NCBI GenBank assembly: GCA_016933575.1
Contig: JAFGAR010000081.1
Span: 1-64,000 of the forward strand
From: Candidatus Thorarchaeota archaeon
GTDB taxonomy: Archaea > Asgardarchaeota > Thorarchaeia > Thorarchaeales > Thorarchaeaceae
Direction: 5' to 3'
Length of the DNA stretch: 64,000 nucleotides
In this document: in pieces, positions 10,365 through 30,738 of the stretch
Layout: every line of letters starts with the position of its first letter
Numbering within the stretch: position 1 is the first letter of the stretch
Made by a program: the position numbers and the translations under genes
The notes under the pieces: model-generated
The model's database searches: none
What the model was told of the DNA's origin: nothing
Seen by the model: only the letters and a program-made list of their open reading frames with translations

Positions 10365-11147
10365 TCATCTGTGTGAAATACCTCCACTCCTTTTACTCTC
10401 TCGTAGTGCATCTCTAATCTCAATGAACATGTTCAGTGTGTCCCTACTGAATACTCGTTTTTTCCGTCTAACATTCAACTTCTTGGTTTCTGCTAATGGT
10501 TTGCGACCAAAGTTCCTCATCTCACGTAAAATAAAGTCGCGCAGTTCTTCGTAGAATTTGATGCCCTCTATTTTCTCCTCAAAAGCATTTGAGGTCAATC
10601 TCTGAATAAGTAGTGATGTCAAATTTGCCGCATGGGTCCCTGTTGAACCTCCTGCTGTTTCAATAAGAACCGAACCTATTCCAAACATCCTGTCGAAGGG
10701 ACCTGCACGTGTTCTCACATTCACTATAGTACGGAATGGCACGTGTTTCTTTGTTATATTGATGATACCTTTGTGAGTGTATATGAACGGCATTGCATTT
10801 CCAGACCAGCCCACTGCAGAATACTCGATTCGTCTTATGTAGATGAATGTGTAGACAGATCCTACAACAACGAATATGACGACAGCTGTTGCATAGACAA
10901 AATTCGTAGTTTCCCAACCAATAATGACCAGAAGTTCGATTGGTTGAAAAAGATCTAGGATATTCTCCAAGAAGACTGGGTTTGCAAAACCCACGAACAA
11001 GAGTGATAATCCCGACCAGATGAGAAAGAGGATAATCCCAACCTTGAGCATCTTCTTGTATAGAAACGCATTGAGAGGCTGGAACGTTCGACCACTTGTT
11101 ATGTGATCAATTGGAGGTTTTATCACCCGTTCCTCATCCTGAGTCAT
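10365..11147 (-). CDS. 2-TM bacterial PH domain (bPH_2/YdbS-like) protein, paralog 4
   Basis: KGIINITKKHVPFRTIVNV, GPFDRMFGIGSVLIETAG; most divergent copy. Confidence 0.85.
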   Translation of the reverse strand: MTQDEERVIKPPIDHITSGRTFQPLNAFLYKKMLKVGIILFLIWSGLSLLFVGFANPVFLENILDLFQPIELLVIIGWETTNFVYATAVVIFVVVGSVYTFIYIRRIEYSAVGWSGNAMPFIYTHKGIINITKKHVPFRTIVNVRTRAGPFDRMFGIGSVLIETAGGSTGTHAANLTSLLIQRLTSNAFEEKIEGIKFYEELRDFILREMRNFGRKPLAETKKLNVRRKKRVFSRDTLNMFIEIRDALRESKRSGGISHR

Positions 11148-11165
11148 CTTGTGTATACCTCACAC

Positions 11166-11876
11166 TTATTCTCTTTTCAAAAGGTCCCTAATCTCTCGTA
11201 GAACAATGAGAATCTCATCCTCTAGACTATCTTCTGTTCTTGGTACAGGTTCTTCTACTGGAACTACAACCTCTGTTCCAGTTACGTAAGGATCTTTGAA
11301 CTTCCGAAGTTCTCTGAGTATAAAGTCTCGAAGCTCTTCGTAGAAGGTGATTCCCTCTAGTTTTTCCTCTGCTGCTGTTGTTGCACCTGAGTATCCAGCT
11401 GTTTCAATCTCAACTGCACCAATTCCAAACAGCCTGTCGAAGAGACCTGCCCGACTTGAAATATTGGTTATTGTACGAAATGGAACGTGTTTACGAGTGA
11501 TATTGATGATTCCCTTCTTCACGAAGATTTCTGGCATTGTTTCTCCAGACTGCGCAATAACTGAATACTCGATAGACCTGAGATATATCGGTACTATGAT
11601 TATTCCTGGAATCAACCAAATTGCTGTTATGACCCAATACCAGAGATTCAAGGTTAGCCACCAGTATTGGAAGAATGCTGAGAAGTTGTCGGAGCCAGTG
11701 AATAGAGTAACTAGCCATAAAACGAGGATAAACGATCCAAATATGATTGCCCAGATTCCAAATGCTGTAAAGATTCCGATGAACCACATCTTGTTCCTGA
11801 ATGCCTTAGAGGGCCTGAATACCTTTCCACTTGCAACATTCTCTACTGGTGGTTTGATTACTTTTCCTTCGCTCAT
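11166..11876 (-). CDS. 2-TM bacterial PH domain (bPH_2/YdbS-like) protein, paralog 3
   Basis: KKGIINITRKHVPFRTITNI, DRLFGIGAVEIETAG, C-terminal LREIRDLLK. Confidence 0.88.
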   Translation of the reverse strand: MSEGKVIKPPVENVASGKVFRPSKAFRNKMWFIGIFTAFGIWAIIFGSFILVLWLVTLFTGSDNFSAFFQYWWLTLNLWYWVITAIWLIPGIIIVPIYLRSIEYSVIAQSGETMPEIFVKKGIINITRKHVPFRTITNISSRAGLFDRLFGIGAVEIETAGYSGATTAAEEKLEGITFYEELRDFILRELRKFKDPYVTGTEVVVPVEEPVPRTEDSLEDEILIVLREIRDLLKRE

Positions 11877-11948
11877 TTACTGACAATCTCCTTTTCTTCG
11901 CATTATCGGGTTATTGTCCTAAAAGGAACATTAGCTTCCCGATTCTTC

Positions 11949-12695
11949 TCAGTCCAATTTATTCTCAATTCGTTCTAACACATCCCTGATCTCACGCAAT
12001 GTGATGAGCATCTCATCATCAAGACTATCACTGAGTCTTGGAACTGGTTCTTCTCTGGGAAGAACGACCTCTGTTCCAGTCACGTAGGGGTCTCTGAACT
12101 TCCGAAGCTCCTGTAAAATGAAATCACGAACTTCTTCATAGAACGTGATTCCTTCGAGCTTCTCTTCAGGTCCTGTCTGACCTCCTGCACCCCCTGAATA
12201 TCCTGCAGTCTGAATCTCCACTGTGCCTATGCCAAAGAGCCTGTCGATGGGACCCGCTCTGGAACTGATGTTCGTTATGGTTCTGAACGGAACGTGTTTC
12301 CTTGTGACATTGATCAAGCCCTTCTTGACATAGATCTCAGGCATTACCATTCCAGACTTTGATATCACACTGTACTCGATACTTCTGATGTATAATGGTA
12401 TTCCAATCATGGCAGGAAGCCACCAGACTACCAGCGAGAGAGCATACCAAAAGCTGAGAATGGGGAGTACATCAAAGAATATCGTGAAGAAGGTGGACCA
12501 CGGAGCATCTTGATCCATCATGTAGATCCAAGCTCCCAAGATGAGTACCCCTACGGTCAGCATCCAAACGAAAATAGCTACCACTGTTGCAGTGAACCAT
12601 TCCTTGTAGCAGAACCTAGTGTCCGGTTTGAACACTTTACCCTTAGTGACATCTTCCATTGGTGGTTTTATTATCCTTCCTTCTTCACTTCCCAT
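11949..12695 (-). CDS. 2-TM bacterial PH domain (bPH_2/YdbS-like) protein, paralog 2
   Basis: KKGLINVTRKHVPFRTITNI, GPIDRLFGIGTVEIQTAG. Confidence 0.88.
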   Translation of the reverse strand: MGSEEGRIIKPPMEDVTKGKVFKPDTRFCYKEWFTATVVAIFVWMLTVGVLILGAWIYMMDQDAPWSTFFTIFFDVLPILSFWYALSLVVWWLPAMIGIPLYIRSIEYSVISKSGMVMPEIYVKKGLINVTRKHVPFRTITNISSRAGPIDRLFGIGTVEIQTAGYSGGAGGQTGPEEKLEGITFYEEVRDFILQELRKFRDPYVTGTEVVLPREEPVPRLSDSLDDEMLITLREIRDVLERIENKLD

Positions 12696-12718
12696 TGTTT
12701 CCTAACCTCGCTTACATA

Positions 12719-13453
12719 CTATAACTTGGTCCTAAGAATCTCTCGAATGTCTCGGATTGCCAGGAGAATCTCATCATCCAAGGATCCATCAATTCTTACG
12801 ACTGCTTCCTCTTGTGGAACACTTACCTCTGTAGCAGTGGCATATGGACCCCTGAATTTCCTGAGTTCGCCAAGCACGAATCGTGTCAGTGCCTCAAAGG
12901 CTTTGATTCCCTCAAGCTTCTCTTCAGGACCCGTTTGTCCGCCTGGCCCTCCTGAATATCCGGCAGTCTGAATCTCGACATTGCCAATCCTGAACAGTCT
13001 ATCGAATACGCCAGCTCGTGAGCTGATGTTTGTGACAGTTCTGAATGGGACATGTTTCTTGGTGATATTGATGATTCCCTTGCGAACATAGATCTCCGGG
13101 GATGCCTCACCAGACTCTGAGATTACAGAGTACTCAATTGAGTTGATATATACTGGAATTCCAATAAGTGCGGGGATCAACCACACTAGATTCGCAATGA
13201 TTGTCCAGTAACTCGCAAATCCGAGCCATTGACTTATGAAGAGCGCATGGCTCCACCCTTCATCCAGTGATATCAGGTACGACATGCCGTACACTGAACC
13301 AATGACTATGAACCATAGTGCAACAGCCACCATGATTGCAGTGAACCAATACTTATTCCGCAAGGCTTTCGATGGCCTGAATGTCTTACCACTAGATATT
13401 GTTTCCATAGCTGGGAAATAACCAGCTGATACTTCCTCGTTCGTTTCATTCAC
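12719..13453 (-). CDS. 2-TM bacterial PH domain (bPH_2/YdbS-like) protein, paralog 1
   Basis: Same PH motifs. Start set at GTG 13453, overlapping the upstream stop, by alignment with the paralogs; ORF is open to 13507. Confidence 0.85.
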   Translation of the reverse strand: MNETNEEVSAGYFPAMETISSGKTFRPSKALRNKYWFTAIMVAVALWFIVIGSVYGMSYLISLDEGWSHALFISQWLGFASYWTIIANLVWLIPALIGIPVYINSIEYSVISESGEASPEIYVRKGIINITKKHVPFRTVTNISSRAGVFDRLFRIGNVEIQTAGYSGGPGGQTGPEEKLEGIKAFEALTRFVLGELRKFRGPYATATEVSVPQEEAVVRIDGSLDDEILLAIRDIREILRTKL

Positions 13454-14102
13454 CTTCTTGTGTTTCTCTCTGATAGCGAGGAAGCTGTTTTGCACCAAGC
13501 TTGCCAAAGATACGTACAGACTGTTCTGTCATGTACATCTCTTCCTCCTTTGGGTTCAAAGTGAGGTTGTACTCTTTGAGGATCGTGTCGAGTGTTTCTC
13601 TACATTCCTCTACCTTTGGGCACGGTTTACCATCGCTCTTTTTCGACTTGTCCACTGGTGTTCCATCACAGAGTTTACCACCATAATTGGTATGCTCATA
13701 CCAGATAATTACACCAAGTCCAAGCGTGAAGACAATGTAGACATTCGTGTTTGCCTGATAGTCAAAGCCTGTGAGAATTCCCTTCTCTCCATTAACATTC
13801 TCAATGTCAAGGCGATGACTGTTTGCATGTTGCTTTAGAGAATCCTCTATCTTTGACTTAGCCCTACTCAGAACCCTGGACACATAGGCGGCACTTGTGA
13901 ACTGCATCCTTTGTATCTTTTCTTTCTCTTTCCTTGCTTTCTTAGAGTCAGTGATTTTACTATCAATCTCTTGAGCAAGGATATCGAAGAGGTACTCAGG
14001 AATGTCCATGGGTCTCTCATACCCACTGAAGATGTCCGAGGTGGGTTTTCCATGATGGTATTCCCACCATACCACTGCTTCATGAGTCGAGAGCAATCCC
14101 AT
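13446..14102 (-). CDS. Putative transcriptional regulator with an interrupted HTH and a Cys-rich C-terminal domain
   Basis: Recognition-helix-like TSAAYVSRVLSRAKSKIE; C-terminal WYEH...C...CPxxxxC; GAGG upstream of ATG 14102 (ORF open to 14126). Confidence 0.65.
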   Translation of the reverse strand: MGLLSTHEAVVWWEYHHGKPTSDIFSGYERPMDIPEYLFDILAQEIDSKITDSKKARKEKEKIQRMQFTSAAYVSRVLSRAKSKIEDSLKQHANSHRLDIENVNGEKGILTGFDYQANTNVYIVFTLGLGVIIWYEHTNYGGKLCDGTPVDKSKKSDGKPCPKVEECRETLDTILKEYNLTLNPKEEEMYMTEQSVRIFGKLGAKQLPRYQRETQEGE

Positions 14103-14142
14103 ACTATACTTCCTCGTGTCACGCACAATTTAACCTTTTCTG

Positions 14143-14220
14143 GTCAAAATTTACTGCGTTCTGGTAAACATTTATATACGAACGAATATAAATCTTTACC
14201 ATCAGGCTGTAAACATTTAC
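14143..14220. promoter_or_regulatory. Divergent promoter with four GTAAA-N2-TTTAC operator palindromes
   Basis: Sites at 14143, 14164, 14188, 14209; TATA-like TTTATATA (+, 14171) and TTTATA (-, 14187-14192) overlap the two inner sites. Confidence 0.75.
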
Positions 14221-14226
14221 AGTCTT

Positions 14227-15012
14227 ATGGTGTTGAAAATGATGACACGAAACGGATCGGTAATTCGAACAGAAGGTCTGAACAAGAGCTTCAGCTCAGT
14301 TCAGGCTGTAAGGAATCTGAATCTAGAAGTTGCTCCGGGCAGTCGGTTCGGTTTTCTTGGACCGAATGGCGCTGGGAAGACAACCACTGTACGAATATTA
14401 TCGGGACTCTTGAAACAGACCAGCGGGAATGCCACAGTGTGTGGTTTCGATATCAATACTCAACGAGATGATATCAAGGCTGCGACTGGTCTACTACCAG
14501 AATCTCCTGGATTGTATTCAAAGCTCTCCGCAGTGGAATTTCTAGAATTCATTGGAGCATTGAACGGAAGAAACGGTGAATCTCTGAATAAACGCATTGA
14601 CAGTCTATTGAGTATTCTCGGACTTGAGGGTAGACAGAACGATCTTCTAGAGTCTTACTCTTCAGGTATGAAACAGAAAGTCCTTGTTGCATCAACTCTC
14701 TTACACGAGCCAAAGCTTGTCTTTCTTGATGAGCCTACATCGAGATTAGACCCAGCAGCAAGTGCGTTAGTAAAAGACTTGATTCTGATTCTTGCGGAAG
14801 AGACTGAAACTAGCTTCTTCATATGTACTCATCAGACCTCATTTGCTGAAGATGTATGTGATGTAATGGGAATTCTCAATGCAGGCGAACTTGTTGTACA
14901 TGGTTCTCCATCTGAGATAATCGCATCGATGAATGTGAATGACCTTGAAGATGCATATCTGAAGATTGTTGGTGGTCATGTTGACAGGAAGACCCTACTA
15001 GCCTGGAGGTAA
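14227..15012 (+). CDS. ABC exporter ATP-binding protein (DrrA/CcmA-like)
   Basis: Walker A GPNGAGKTT, signature YSSGMKQK, Walker B FLDEP, H-loop CTH. Confidence 0.96.
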   Translation: MVLKMMTRNGSVIRTEGLNKSFSSVQAVRNLNLEVAPGSRFGFLGPNGAGKTTTVRILSGLLKQTSGNATVCGFDINTQRDDIKAATGLLPESPGLYSKLSAVEFLEFIGALNGRNGESLNKRIDSLLSILGLEGRQNDLLESYSSGMKQKVLVASTLLHEPKLVFLDEPTSRLDPAASALVKDLILILAEETETSFFICTHQTSFAEDVCDVMGILNAGELVVHGSPSEIIASMNVNDLEDAYLKIVGGHVDRKTLLAWR

Positions 15013-15018
15013 TCTTCT

Positions 15019-16698
15019 ATGACGCGACAATGGCTTGCTATTGCAAAGGCTGAATTCCAAGTATTATTTGCAAGCATGAGATCGCATAGGAAGACGTATG
15101 TGAGTATACTTGCTATCATTGCATTTTCTTGGGCAATGGTGATTGCTCCCGTAGTGATTGGGTACTTCATCGGTCTGATAATCCCAATGGAATCCCTACA
15201 ACCACTCTTGCAATTGATCTTTCCAGGACTGATGCGTACAATTGTTCTTTTCCTGTGGATCTTGTTACTGCTATTCCCACTATCCTATGCTCTTCAAGAG
15301 ATAAAGATAGGTCAGTGGGAGATATTCCTGTCAAATAATGTATCTACCCGAAATATCATGGCAGGTACGTTCTTGGGCAAGATTCCTCTCTTTGGACTAA
15401 TTGTTGTATTCTTTTCACCTCTCCTGATTACACCATTAGTCCTAGCATTTGAGGTCAATATAGTAGGGCAAATTATGTTGTATGGCGTAATCACTCTGCT
15501 TGCATTAGGAACAATATGGCTCTCAAACTTCATTACTAGTATAATTCAAGCGAGACTGGGTGACTCCTCACGAGGTAACGATATTGCTAAGGCATTATCA
15601 ATGGTCATTGCAATCATTGTCATCATCCCAATGTATGGCTTGATGTTCTTCCTTCCAACTGTATCTGAAATGATGGGAATGGATGCTTTTCTTCTCCTCC
15701 CACCTACATGGTTTGCAGATACCCTGAGCTGGTTAGCAATCACTTTCAATGGAGTCGGACTGACCGTAGATCAAACTACTATCTTTGGTAATTTTCTCCA
15801 GCTAGACCTTCTAGTATCATCTTTACTGATGGGCGGCTTTGTCTTTGCGACAATCATCATTGCACTCAGAGCAGCTGACAGAGTATTTACTATTGATGCT
15901 GGTGTTCGAACGCAAGTCGTGACAACAGTGCGAAACGAGAACTTGATCCTTCGAGGGATTAGAAGACTTAGTTCTGGACCATTTGGTTCACTTATGGTAT
16001 CTAATTTCAAGGACTTCACCCGGAAGGCACAGAATCTATCAAAGATATTTTATGGTGTAGTTCTAGCATGTATATTACCAATCATCTTGACAACTGTAGA
16101 TGCTGAATACATTCAGATTAGGGAGATGATCATAATGATCATTGCAATGCTGTCGCTTGTTGGATCATTCCCATTCGCTGGAGCTGGTTTCCTTGAGAGT
16201 AAAGATCAGCTATGGATGATTCAAGGAGCACCAAATGGAGCCTCGAAGTTTGTTAAGAGCAGAATTGTGACTCAGGCGATGATAGGTATACCTCTGATCT
16301 TCATTCCTGCAACGCTGATGTACATCCTACTTGAAATGACTCCCTTTGAACTACTGGCATTGATTGGTCTTGGATATATGGCAATATTTGGAGGCATGCT
16401 CATTTCAACTGGTATAACTGCTGGTAATCCGAATTATGAGGATACAAAGTCGCCAGCGCATCAGGCAAACCTGATGACCTCAGTCATGCTGGCAGAGTTC
16501 TCAATTATTGGAGTCCTCTTTATCGATATGTTCCTCACAATCGGGCTAGGTATTGATATGCTTGGATTCATTGCAAGTATTGTTGGGTCCAACTATCTGA
16601 TGTTCGGAATGTCTTTCGTAGGCATATTGGTCCAGTGGTCCCTTGGTGCAATCTTGGTGTGGATAGGTATTCGAAAGTTATCAAGTCCAGCCAGTTAG
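15019..16698 (+). CDS. ABC-2-type exporter permease (large, multi-TM)
   Basis: 559 aa with more than ten hydrophobic helices, directly after the ATPase. Confidence 0.85.
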   Translation: MTRQWLAIAKAEFQVLFASMRSHRKTYVSILAIIAFSWAMVIAPVVIGYFIGLIIPMESLQPLLQLIFPGLMRTIVLFLWILLLLFPLSYALQEIKIGQWEIFLSNNVSTRNIMAGTFLGKIPLFGLIVVFFSPLLITPLVLAFEVNIVGQIMLYGVITLLALGTIWLSNFITSIIQARLGDSSRGNDIAKALSMVIAIIVIIPMYGLMFFLPTVSEMMGMDAFLLLPPTWFADTLSWLAITFNGVGLTVDQTTIFGNFLQLDLLVSSLLMGGFVFATIIIALRAADRVFTIDAGVRTQVVTTVRNENLILRGIRRLSSGPFGSLMVSNFKDFTRKAQNLSKIFYGVVLACILPIILTTVDAEYIQIREMIIMIIAMLSLVGSFPFAGAGFLESKDQLWMIQGAPNGASKFVKSRIVTQAMIGIPLIFIPATLMYILLEMTPFELLALIGLGYMAIFGGMLISTGITAGNPNYEDTKSPAHQANLMTSVMLAEFSIIGVLFIDMFLTIGLGIDMLGFIASIVGSNYLMFGMSFVGILVQWSLGAILVWIGIRKLSSPAS

Positions 16699-16716
16699 AA
16701 ATTGGAGCTGTTCCCA

Positions 16717-17359
16717 ATGCTAGGGAATTGGTACCATATTGTAAAGGTAGAGTACTTGGTGATGACCGCCAGGTTTCGCTCTCAACGTAAAGCGGTGATG
16801 ATGAGCCTATTCACTCTTAGTGTGATTTGGGCTCTCATCATCGTGCCAACGATAGCATCAATCCTTCTTCAATGGTTTGGGGCTCAAATGGAGTTTCTAT
16901 TGGTTCTTGGATTCTCAGAATCAACTATGGATAGTGAAGAGTTCTCCCAATGGCATTGAGCGGTATGTGAAAGCTCGTATTGCAGAATCCTTACTATTTG
17001 GATTCCCAATGACTATAATTGTGTCGATTATGATTCAGTTTGCAGTTGGATTAGATCTAGCTGAATCACTAGTGATTCTCTTTAGTACATCTCTAGCTAT
17101 GATTGGTGCTGTCTTGGTAAGTACCGGGAATACCACTTACAATCCCTATTATGATGATACTCAGAGTAAGTCCTTCAAAGATAATACTGGAATCATGATG
17201 TCTATCATAATGTTCTGAATGATTGTAGTTACTCCACTATCGATAATTCCTCTGTTTAGAAATCTCATTGTCTTATCATGCGTCCCCACAATGATACTGG
17301 TGACTGTTGGAACCATCCTCATCATTAGAGGCACACGGAAAATAACACGACCTGATTAG
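16717..17359 (+). pseudogene. Decayed paralog of the ABC permease
   Basis: N-terminus WYHIVKVEY matches WLAIAKAEF of the upstream permease. It then jumps with a frameshift to FLDSQNQLWIVKSSPNG (cf. FLESKDQLWMIQGAPNG). In-frame TGA at 17216-17218; C-terminus RGTRKITRPD matches IGIRKLSSPAS. Confidence 0.85.
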
Positions 17360-19313: not shown

Positions 19314-19808
19314 TTATCTTAATGAATCAGATTTCCAAAGAATCCTGTGGTACTGTTCAACAAGAACTTCTGGCCAGCTACCTACAGACCTTAGAAGAAG
19401 ATCTGCAGTAAGACCTACATCTTTGTCTAGAACAAGTTCCTTTAGATTTGCACATTGAAAAAGCGGCGATAAGTCCACTCGCTTTAACCGATTATGTTCA
19501 AGGGACACTTCTTCTAGATCTGGACAAAAACTGAGCGGACCAAAGTCTATATCCTGCAATCGATTATTATTCAATCTAATCGATCTAAGTTTTTTTCCAC
19601 ACTTCTCAAGAGGCGAGAGGTCAATCTCAATCAGTGAGTTATTACGTAAACACAGAGTCTCGAGGTTCTCACACCATATGAGTGGGAGTAAGTCAACAAT
19701 TGTGATATCTCTAAGATCTAAGTTTATAGAAGTTTCATCAGTTCTGAATCTCGCCGTCTTCTCAAGACCTGTAGTAGTTTCATATCTTATGAAAATCTCA
19801 GATACCAC
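19314..19808 (-). CDS. Leucine-rich repeat protein
   Basis: Repeats LxxLxLxxNxLxxIDLSPL (NSLIEIDLSPL, NRLQDIDFGPL, NRLKRVDLSPL). Confidence 0.9.
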   Translation of the reverse strand: MVSEIFIRYETTTGLEKTARFRTDETSINLDLRDITIVDLLPLIWCENLETLCLRNNSLIEIDLSPLEKCGKKLRSIRLNNNRLQDIDFGPLSFCPDLEEVSLEHNRLKRVDLSPLFQCANLKELVLDKDVGLTADLLLRSVGSWPEVLVEQYHRILWKSDSLR

Positions 19809-30240: not shown

Positions 30241-30738
30241 TTATAGCATTATCAGACCAGTAGGCGTCATTCTATATTTTCTAAGCCTTTCACTTATCCA
30301 TGGATATCTATCTAGCCAGTCAAGAAATCTATCATTTGACAAGATATCTGCATTCCGATCCTGAGCAGTCTGGATTATTTTCAAATCATCATTCATTCCT
30401 CGAGGAGCTTGCACCATCTCTAAACTACCTAGGACTGAGTTCAAAATATCTGGTTTGTCTATCTTATGAAAGAGTGCAGTAGATATTACGAAAATTGGTC
30501 TGTACCCTCCATTGGTCAGACTATTATGAGCAAGAAGGAGATTATTTACAAGGGGTTTATTTTCAGGTGACAAGTGATATGCAATGTTATTTCCATCGAC
30601 TACGATGGTACGTTTCTTTCTCTTTGAAACAGAAGATTGTTCGCCACGGGCACGACTTCTGCATTTCACAATATGTCTATCTAGCTCATCTCGGTTGAAA
30701 AGTTTGTCACAGTGTGGACATCGAGCTCGTTTTGGCAT
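30241..30738 (-). CDS. C2HC zinc finger fused to a Zc3h12a/Regnase-like NYN (PIN) ribonuclease
   Basis: CPHC-x11-H-x3-C; IVVDGNNIA, DDLKII, ILSNDRFLD. Confidence 0.85.
   Translation of the reverse strand: MPKRARCPHCDKLFNRDELDRHIVKCRSRARGEQSSVSKRKKRTIVVDGNNIAYHLSPENKPLVNNLLLAHNSLTNGGYRPIFVISTALFHKIDKPDILNSVLGSLEMVQAPRGMNDDLKIIQTAQDRNADILSNDRFLDWLDRYPWISERLRKYRMTPTGLIML

Follow-up and report, generated by a model that had tools for sequence, protein, structure and literature searches.

How can a short intergenic region serve two promoters that point away from each other, and which factor reads the repeated symmetry that it holds? The question is raised by a stretch of 64,000 nt from a Candidatus Thorarchaeota archaeon (GenBank assembly GCA_016933575.1, contig JAFGAR010000081.1, positions 1 to 64,000 of the forward strand), hereafter the window. 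Between a gene for a small protein at 13446-14102 and a divergently oriented gene for a transporter of the ATP-binding cassette (ABC) type lie four copies of a GTAAA-N2-TTTAC palindrome, termed O1 to O4. Comparison of related loci suggests that the adjacent 13446-14102 protein, here called the regulator, reads O1-O4 and autoregulates as a local repressor, a reading to which we assign a probability of roughly 0.72. The argument depends on the features below, in which BRE denotes the transcription factor B (TFB) recognition element and HTH denotes helix-turn-helix.

14143-14154 (16-bp extent 14141-14156), no strand: O1, GTCAAAATTTAC, the predicted operator distal to the regulator promoter.
14164-14175, no strand: O2, GTAAACATTTAT; the putative plus-strand TATA box begins with the right half of O2, and the left half lies over the BRE position.
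14171-14178, plus strand: putative TATA box of the ABC-transporter promoter, TTTATATA; O2 runs into it.
14192-14185, minus strand: putative TATA box of the regulator promoter, TTTATATT; O3 runs into it.
14188-14199, no strand: O3, ATAAATCTTTAC, the mirror image of O2, carrying the putative BRE/TATA of the minus-strand promoter.
14209-14220, no strand: O4, GTAAACATTTAC, the perfect site.
14110-14116, minus strand: Shine-Dalgarno-like CGAGGAA, 7 nt upstream of the regulator ATG at 14102 and invariant in 12 of 12 close orthologues.
13446-14102, minus strand: candidate regulator of 218 aa with a predicted N-terminal HTH, a long helix and an alpha/beta C-terminal domain; no Pfam family.
14239-15012 (ATG 14239 or 14242), plus strand: ABC transporter ATPase (PF00005, 4.9e-26), the divergent predicted target.

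The preliminary description of this DNA had reported sites starting at 14143, 14164, 14188 and 14209, with start-to-start spacings of 21, 24 and 21 bp, and both the sequence and a scan of the window bear this out. Its claim that O4 extends to a perfect CTGTAAA-CA-TTTACAG is equally correct, as this 16-bp palindrome (CTGTAAACATTTACAG) occupies 14207-14222. The four sites had also been described as two symmetric pairs. Indeed, the whole 78 bp form an imperfect palindrome about a dyad at 14181/14182, with arms of 38 nt (14143-14180 and 14183-14220) that are 76% complementary, and the TATA-like box on the minus strand mirrors that on the plus strand about the same dyad. O4 additionally lies inside a second, looser palindrome of 34 bp (14198-14231), whose 16-nt arms (14198-14213 and 14216-14231) are 88% complementary.

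Within the window, a scan for GTAAANNTTTAC with at most one mismatch yields four matches, all of which are O1-O4. Because 1.74 matches are expected in the whole window and 7 of 100 shuffles gave at least four somewhere, this count is unremarkable, and the signal resides in the clustering of the sites. The source genome (3,466,336 bases in 215 contigs, 85.5% complete) contains 4 exact and 58 one-mismatch matches to the motif. A genome-wide scan had been proposed at the outset and, once run, returned O1-O4 as the only cluster in 3.47 Mb: nowhere else do two matches with at most one mismatch fall within 120 bp, and nowhere else do three or more sites cluster at up to two mismatches. Simple arithmetic based on 62 sites per 3.47 Mb gives a probability of no more than about 1e-7 that a given site is joined by three others within 78 bp. 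The remaining three exact matches all lie inside open reading frames (ORFs) according to a crude ORF call. Pairs spaced by 20-24 bp occur elsewhere only twice, both on contig C156, with two mismatches in each member. Neither the genome-wide motif scan nor the phased-pair search of the source genome revealed further regulon members.

When 61 genomes were searched at the protein level, 37 proved to encode the regulator, among them 33 of the 36 other genomes of the same family. Among close relatives, 12 unique orthologous spacers with a facing transporter were compared, for which the regulators are 78-88% identical. O1-O4 keep their positions in all 12. Of the specified core positions, 37 of 40 are invariant, as are 5 of 8 positions in the N2 spacers, 14 of 24 in the flanks and 16 of 68 in the remaining intergenic DNA. 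The contrast between the core and the rest gives a Fisher p of 7.6e-13, a value that exaggerates the significance because neither loci nor positions are independent. The array is a strong phylogenetic footprint. Apart from the sites, the invariant block in these spacers is the ribosome-binding CGAGGAA, whose location just before the ATG supports the start at 14102 that had been proposed for the regulator.

Each of the four sites has its own pattern of conservation. O1 is found at the same position in 12 of 12 spacers and always deviates at position 3, where it carries C or T. O2 is invariant in all 12, including its TTTAT. Ten of the 12 complete spacers (L001-L006, L009, L010, L012 and L013), as well as the contig-cut L011, retain O3 with no more than one mismatch, and the other two (L007 and L008) bear one further mismatch. 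The left half of O3 reads ATAAA in 9 of 12, ATATA in L007 and L008, and TTAAA in L013. O4 is exact in 12 of 12, and only its N2 spacer varies. Indels of 1 and 2 nt occur in the orthologous spacers, and the spacer is therefore non-coding; an ORF at 13911-14471 was dismissed as spurious on the same evidence.

To these were added 80 loci from named genome records, resulting in 85 unique upstream sequences. A site was counted when it had at most one mismatch and fell within 170 nt of the regulator start, and counting covered the 83 loci with at least 100 nt upstream. The presence of the motif in orthologous intergenic regions had been set as a test of the original proposal, and at least one site precedes the regulator relative in 68 of these 83 unique loci. 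By comparison, of 1702 control windows drawn from these loci at a distance of 300 nt or more, 1 held a site. Distances between sites (at most two mismatches) peak at 21 bp (51 pairs), 22 bp (10 pairs), 24 bp (12 pairs), 44-45 bp (35 pairs, 27 of them at 45 bp) and 66-67 bp (26 pairs, 21 of them at 66 bp).

The wider loci also separate the regulator from the transporter. A gene for a bPH_2 membrane protein follows the regulator gene in 83 of the 85 unique loci, Bathyarchaeia included; the two misses are L110, in which the sequence ends 5 bases past the match to the regulator, and L075. In 51 of the 85, an ABC ATPase gene lies opposite the regulator in divergent orientation. The most constant partner of the regulator is thus the bPH_2 membrane-protein operon behind it rather than the ABC transporter. 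The transporter is absent from all 20 loci that bear the label Bathyarchaeota, Bathyarchaeia or Thermoproteota. Of these 20, 19 have a site (L101 does not), which is mostly perfect and abuts a TATA-like TTATAAA. In 18 of the 20, a degenerate partner of the form GTATT/GTATA-N2-TTTAC lies 20-22 bp (nearly always 21 bp) nearer to the regulator start codon. Because these loci keep their sites without a transporter, the motif travels with the regulator gene and not with the transporter. These loci define a conserved unit made up of a TATA box, a proximal operator, a step of 21 bp, a distal operator and the regulator gene, and the Thorarchaeota array looks like two such TATA/21-bp-pair units placed back to back.

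Do the inner sites really include promoters? The preliminary description had stated that the deviations of O2 and O3 from the motif are exactly those that create one TATA box in each direction. This was examined using a crude ORF call of the source genome (2,577 ORFs, ATG starts only), with k-mers counted at -80 to -5. The most enriched upstream k-mers are TATATA, TTATAT, TTATATA, TTTATAT, TTATTAG and the ribosome-binding AGGAGGT, so the enrichment of TTTATAT-type k-mers upstream of ORFs agrees with that statement. The boxes in the inner sites, which read TTTATAT(A/T) with one per strand, match the organism's own TATA type. The single most enriched 7-mer is TTATTAG (39 observed versus 7.8 expected), ahead of TTATATA. 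In L009 and L010, the plus-strand TATA box is replaced by TTTATTAG, which contains TTATTAG, and TTATTAG may be a lineage-typical TATA variant. GTAAA-N2 precedes 1 of the 32 upstream TTTATAT boxes in the genome, and that one may be the box of the regulator/transporter locus itself. This count rules out GTAAA as a general BRE of the source genome. A scan for sigma-70 promoters, which are not relevant to an archaeon, found 2 where 1.2 were expected.

The TATA-like boxes lie about 60 nt and 83 nt from the start codons, which leaves room for leaders with conserved ribosome-binding sites. In archaea, transcription starts can be predicted from the usual distance between TATA box and start site, and this distance places them near 14201 (plus) and 14162 (minus). 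Relative to the predicted plus-strand start, O2 would lie over BRE/TATA, O3 at about -13 to -2 and O4 at about +8 to +19. The same layout would be mirrored for the minus-strand promoter, with O3 over BRE/TATA and O1 beyond the predicted start. The 16-bp extents of O1 in the regulator transcript and of O4 in the transporter transcript are each predicted at about +6 to +21. O4 is upstream of the GGTG ribosome-binding site of the transporter. The transporter start had originally been placed at 14227. Orthologues align only from 14239/14242, and the ATG at one of these two positions is therefore the more likely start.

What kind of protein would bind such sites? The regulator has no match in Pfam at E <= 0.01, and across 38 family members only noise appears at E <= 10. 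The HTH models Sigma70_r4 (PF04545), Sigma70_r4_2 (PF08281), GerE (PF00196) and HTH_10 (PF04967) are not listed for it, nor are they among the 25 most frequent of the 29 Pfam families returned for the 38 members at E <= 10. A sequence search of the PDB with the family profile gave 0 matches at E <= 10. Alignment of the 38 relatives nevertheless reveals several conserved elements: an N-terminal motif M-G-L-L-S-x-H-E-A-x-V-W, a helix G-K-x-T-S-D/E-I-A, a putative recognition helix with invariant residues Y73, S75, V77, L78, R80 and K84, an H96-R97-L98 motif, and three invariant cysteines (C145, C161 and C167) that form C-x2-C-x5-C in short forms. The GTAAA half-site is invariant alongside the putative recognition helix.

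An AlphaFold2 model of the regulator (predicted local distance difference test score, pLDDT, of 87.8; predicted template modeling score of 0.83) has helices at residues 6-16, 21-27, 36-49 and 53-64 and a long helix at 71-95, followed by four strands at 99-135 and three further helices. The HTH is interrupted between its helices 2 and 3 by a helical insertion that is about 50 aa long in the window's clade and is reduced to a few residues in forms of 167 aa. Foldseek found nothing in the PDB for the full model at E <= 0.001. The model was also compared using VIA-align with 48,161 PDB representatives, a method for which Z scores under 8 are common. With the insertion skipped, residues 1-94 align to sigma-70 region 4 and to LuxR/GerE-type HTH domains with Z of 5.4-7.5 over 45-57 residues, and the root-mean-square deviation (rmsd) for the region-4 and response-regulator matches is 1.0-2.0 Å. 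The best match is EnfR (8hno), with Z 7.5, rmsd 1.0 Å over 49 residues and 26% identity, followed by sigma-28 region 4 (Z 7.1), SigF region 4 (Z 6.8) and NarL bound to DNA (Z 6.6). DesR, RcsB, DosR and many region-4 domains of extracytoplasmic function (ECF) sigma factors are matched as well. The assignment carries weight because one fold class fills the match list and the rmsd values are low. According to the model, the N-terminus of the regulator thus has the predicted fold of a sigma-70-region-4/LuxR-type HTH.

The C-terminal domain taken alone (model pLDDT 75.5) reached a best Z of 3.4 against the same 48,161 chains, so that no fold was assigned, which is not proof of a new one. Membership in the Tfx family was considered and found no support. 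TFX_C (PF14601) is not listed for the regulator and has 0 matches in the source genome and in the 36 other genomes of the same family; the model did match in one Asgard genome and in 2 control genomes. An hhalign comparison of the 38 regulator relatives with 27 Tfx proteins gave a probability of 4% (E 0.011, 36 columns) and covered only the N-terminal GLLS/T...EIA helices. The absence of TFX_C and a C-terminal domain without a structural neighbour both speak against membership. A protein atlas, which provides leads only, placed the regulator in its own cluster, with a Bathyarchaeota cluster of 451 members and Sigma70_r4 and Tfx clusters at 0.75-0.81, of which the Tfx clusters score 0.75-0.76.

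These components can be assembled into a working model. The preliminary description had proposed that one repressor, probably the 13446-14102 protein, binds cooperatively and blocks both promoters, and those of its parts that are open to computational checks are all borne out. The TATA box at 14171-14178 would drive the ABC transporter, and that at 14192-14185 would serve the regulator gene together with the four bPH_2 genes that lie behind it. Downstream of either promoter would come two 12-bp palindromes, for which 7-2-7 is the better description, set 21 bp or two helical turns apart, and the proximal palindrome of each pair would carry the BRE/TATA of the opposite promoter. Regulator dimers would bind each 7-2-7-like palindrome and would do so in pairs 21 bp apart on one face of the DNA, probably cooperatively. 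Occupied sites would exclude the TATA-binding protein (TBP) as well as TFB from both TATA/BRE elements and RNA polymerase from both promoters. Because TATA/BRE would be blocked and about -13 to +20 of both promoters would be covered, both operons would be repressed. The positions of the sites and the 21-bp phasing point to repression rather than activation, to cooperativity and to the blocking of both promoters. Release would follow a signal, perhaps one detected by the C-terminal domain, whose three invariant cysteines suggest a metal or redox input.

Several observations weigh against local repression by the regulator. None of the HTH families has a sequence model that recognises the regulator, an insertion of about 50 aa sits inside the HTH of the window's clade, and the fold matches are middling (Z 5.4-7.5) and extend over about 50 residues only. 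The promoter statistics are built on crude ORF calling. Among 14 unique loci with a facing transporter and regulator identity below 48%, 7 keep a site at no more than one mismatch. These 14 include loci of the same genus with a 167-aa regulator (L020 and L022-L029), where the outer palindromes read GTAAT-N5-ATTAC and GTAAAC-N6-8-GTTTAC. The motif model is not universal, because the outer palindromes of such low-identity loci have other spacers. Counts of loci also overstate independence because related loci are kin. Finally, RNA from 14201-14245 folds with a 9-bp stem over O4 at -9.7 to -9.9 kcal/mol, an observation that favors a different view of the outer palindromes as RNA hairpins in the 5' leaders of both mRNAs, controlling stability or translation. 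This view also gains from the fact that the palindrome runs past the core with flanks that differ among orthologues (e.g., CGCG/CGCG versus CGTG/CACG) and from a G-U-compatible position in one mid-distance clade. The fold over O4, however, has a z score of -1.72, and 10 of 200 shuffles fold as well. O1 on the minus strand does not self-fold in the predicted structure, O2 and O3 lie upstream of one of the two predicted starts, and mid-distance orthologues keep GGTAAAGATTTA without hairpin potential. Moreover, a search of 13900-14500 against Rfam gave no family at threshold. Matches below the gathering cutoffs were taken as chance (mir-500, 23.7 of 78 bits; Glutamine-II, 13.6 of 33; snoU85, 12.6 of 41). 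RNA-level control of this type is therefore improbable in our judgment.

Two further explanations accept the sites as DNA elements and differ in what reads them. The sites might be core-promoter elements only, with inner sites acting as BRE/TATA, outer sites representing decayed or alternative promoter copies, and no dedicated factor involved. The inner sites do hold TATA-like boxes of the enriched type, the Bathyarchaeia regulator promoter also reads GGAAAGATTTATAA, close to O3, and any A-rich stretch ahead of a TATA box has a BRE-like appearance. Yet the outer sites end in TTTAC rather than in a TATA box and are as invariant as the inner ones, GTAAA-N2 stands ahead of only 1 in 32 upstream TTTATAT boxes, possibly the one of this locus, the motif is confined to one locus in the genome, and strict 21-bp pairing has no role in core-promoter function. 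We regard this explanation as highly improbable. It is unlikely, if somewhat easier to entertain, that the operators are read by a factor encoded elsewhere or that the adjacent protein is an activator or dual regulator. Thorarchaeota genomes carry many weak paralogues of about 160 aa, and some archaeal factors activate or repress depending on the position of their site. Against a factor encoded elsewhere, the motif stays with the regulator gene across two phyla and also where the transporter is lost, and the source genome has only one copy of the regulator at E <= 0.001. Against activation, TATA/BRE and the stretch immediately downstream of both predicted starts are covered by the sites, an arrangement expected to repress, and any site placed directly upstream of a BRE, where activators usually bind, overlaps the opposite promoter as well.

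Local repression by the regulator can be extended into a bolder proposal whose parts we consider doubtful when taken jointly. The protein would be the founding member of an undescribed family of sensor-regulators common to Asgard archaea (Thorarchaeota) and Bathyarchaeia. Its operators would imitate BRE/TATA (GTAAA-N2-TTTAT versus GTAAA-N2-TTTAC) such that the regulator competes base-for-base with TBP/TFB. The C-terminal Cys3(+His) domain would sense a metal, a redox state or a membrane signal, which the bPH_2 membrane partners might relay in a manner resembling sigma/anti-sigma pairs. The output would be a peptide-export or envelope-stress module.

Two sets of genes adjoin those already listed.

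15019-16698, plus strand: transporter membrane permease of 559 aa; no Pfam family, conserved behind the ATPase in orthologous loci.
10365-13408, minus strand: four tandem paralogues of bPH_2 (YdbS/YdbT-like) membrane proteins; PF03703 on the two paralogues scanned.

The four bPH_2 genes probably form one operon with the regulator gene directly ahead of them. Their products have two transmembrane segments and, in the comparisons made, share about 50-56% identity. The first paralogue may start at the ATG at 13408 or at a TTG at 13507 that overlaps the end of the regulator gene. Two short ORFs behind the permease, at 16702-17218 (plus strand), show similarity to its N-terminal end (judged by eye) and to residues 391-484 (34% identity, tblastn). 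They appear to be what is left of another permease paralogue that suffered an internal deletion. The window also encodes an aldehyde:ferredoxin oxidoreductase, a [NiFe] hydrogenase cluster, and leucine-rich-repeat and Zc3h12a-type NYN proteins, as would suit an Asgard archaeon. Of the last two kinds, a leucine-rich-repeat protein of small size is encoded at 19314-19808 and a protein with a Zc3h12a-like NYN ribonuclease domain at 30241-30738, both on the minus strand; both domain families are mainly eukaryotic.

Relatives of the locus offer some additional observations on how it changes. In L020 and L022-L029, the regulator is about 45% identical to the 218-aa form and the facing ABC ATPase is 80-85% identical. 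The regulator and its sites have changed, through divergence or exchange, far more rapidly than the genes around them. In L014/L043 (genome G007), a truncated regulator, matched from residue 36 onwards, lies directly next to the 3' portion of the permease gene (residues 336-559), and the array is not present. There, the array, the ATPase and half of the permease appear to have been deleted, or the contig to have been misassembled. The source genome's single regulator copy stands beside most of the related Thorarchaeota genomes searched, which hold several weak paralogues of 155-190 aa with 22-35% identity to regulator residues ~55-145. Their occurrence suggests that small regulators with this recognition helix and beta-sheet domain make up a larger family.

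How does this arrangement relate to known systems? The best structural match to the N-terminal HTH, EnfR (TON_1525, PDB 8HNO), is a Tfx-family protein of Thermococcus onnurineus and a dimeric archaeal repressor, whose protected site is a 36-bp pseudo-palindrome that overlaps a TATA-like box (PMC10570040). EnfR and the regulator are alike in being small archaeal proteins in which an HTH like that of sigma-70 region 4 at the N-terminus is combined with a long helix and an alpha+beta C-terminal part. The regulator differs from EnfR in its three invariant cysteines, its insertion of ~50 aa in the HTH and its lack of TFX_C, and four predicted operators of 12 bp take the place of a single 36-bp site. 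LuxR/GerE response regulators (NarL, DosR and RcsB) and sigma-70 region 4 share the predicted HTH fold with Z of 5.4-7.1 and rmsd of 1.2-2.0 Å, whereas the regulator has neither a receiver domain nor sigma regions 2 or 3 and belongs to an archaeon with TBP/TFB promoters. NarL sites have a 7-2-7 layout, and the extended O4 has the same inverted arrangement of heptamer, 2 bp and heptamer.

Among archaeal repressors, MDR1, LrpA, Phr and TrmB occlude the BRE/TATA or the start site at their own or at divergent promoters. Palindromic operators over TATA/BRE and just downstream, autoregulation and local targets are features of these systems that are predicted here as well. The regulator belongs to another protein family, however, and the pairs phased by 21 bp are nested, with half of an inner operator doubling as the TATA box of the opposite promoter. 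A parallel to the gene content is provided by the enterocin DD14 locus of Firmicutes (DdE/DdF and DdHIJ), where the PH-domain proteins DdE and DdF are needed for export of a leaderless bacteriocin (PMC8657885). At both loci, YdbS/YdbT-like bPH_2 membrane proteins are encoded next to an ABC transporter. The Thorarchaeota locus differs in its archaeal host and its regulator and has no identified peptide gene. The B. subtilis genes ydbS and ydbT are reportedly named in a paper on the sigma-W regulon (PMC3498285).

Literature searches on the regulator family or the operator motif found nothing specific, and searches for an experimentally characterised specific transcription factor of Asgard archaea also found none. 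To our knowledge, very few specific Asgard transcription factors are known. The regulatory logic is a textbook design for archaeal repressors, whereas the regulator family and the nested architecture of four sites are undescribed. Because the principle is a textbook one, the value of the locus lies in its new family and clean architecture rather than in its mechanism.

The locus amounts to a compact and testable pair, namely a protein of 218 aa and a 78-bp DNA fragment with four predicted sites, for which comparative evidence fixes the half-site, the 21-bp phasing and the predicted target genes. Binding, if true, would provide the DNA specificity of a family without a Pfam model that occurs in two archaeal phyla dominating sediments, and would show how one factor shuts divergent archaeal promoters. 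It would likewise help to reveal what the widespread bPH_2 membrane proteins do.

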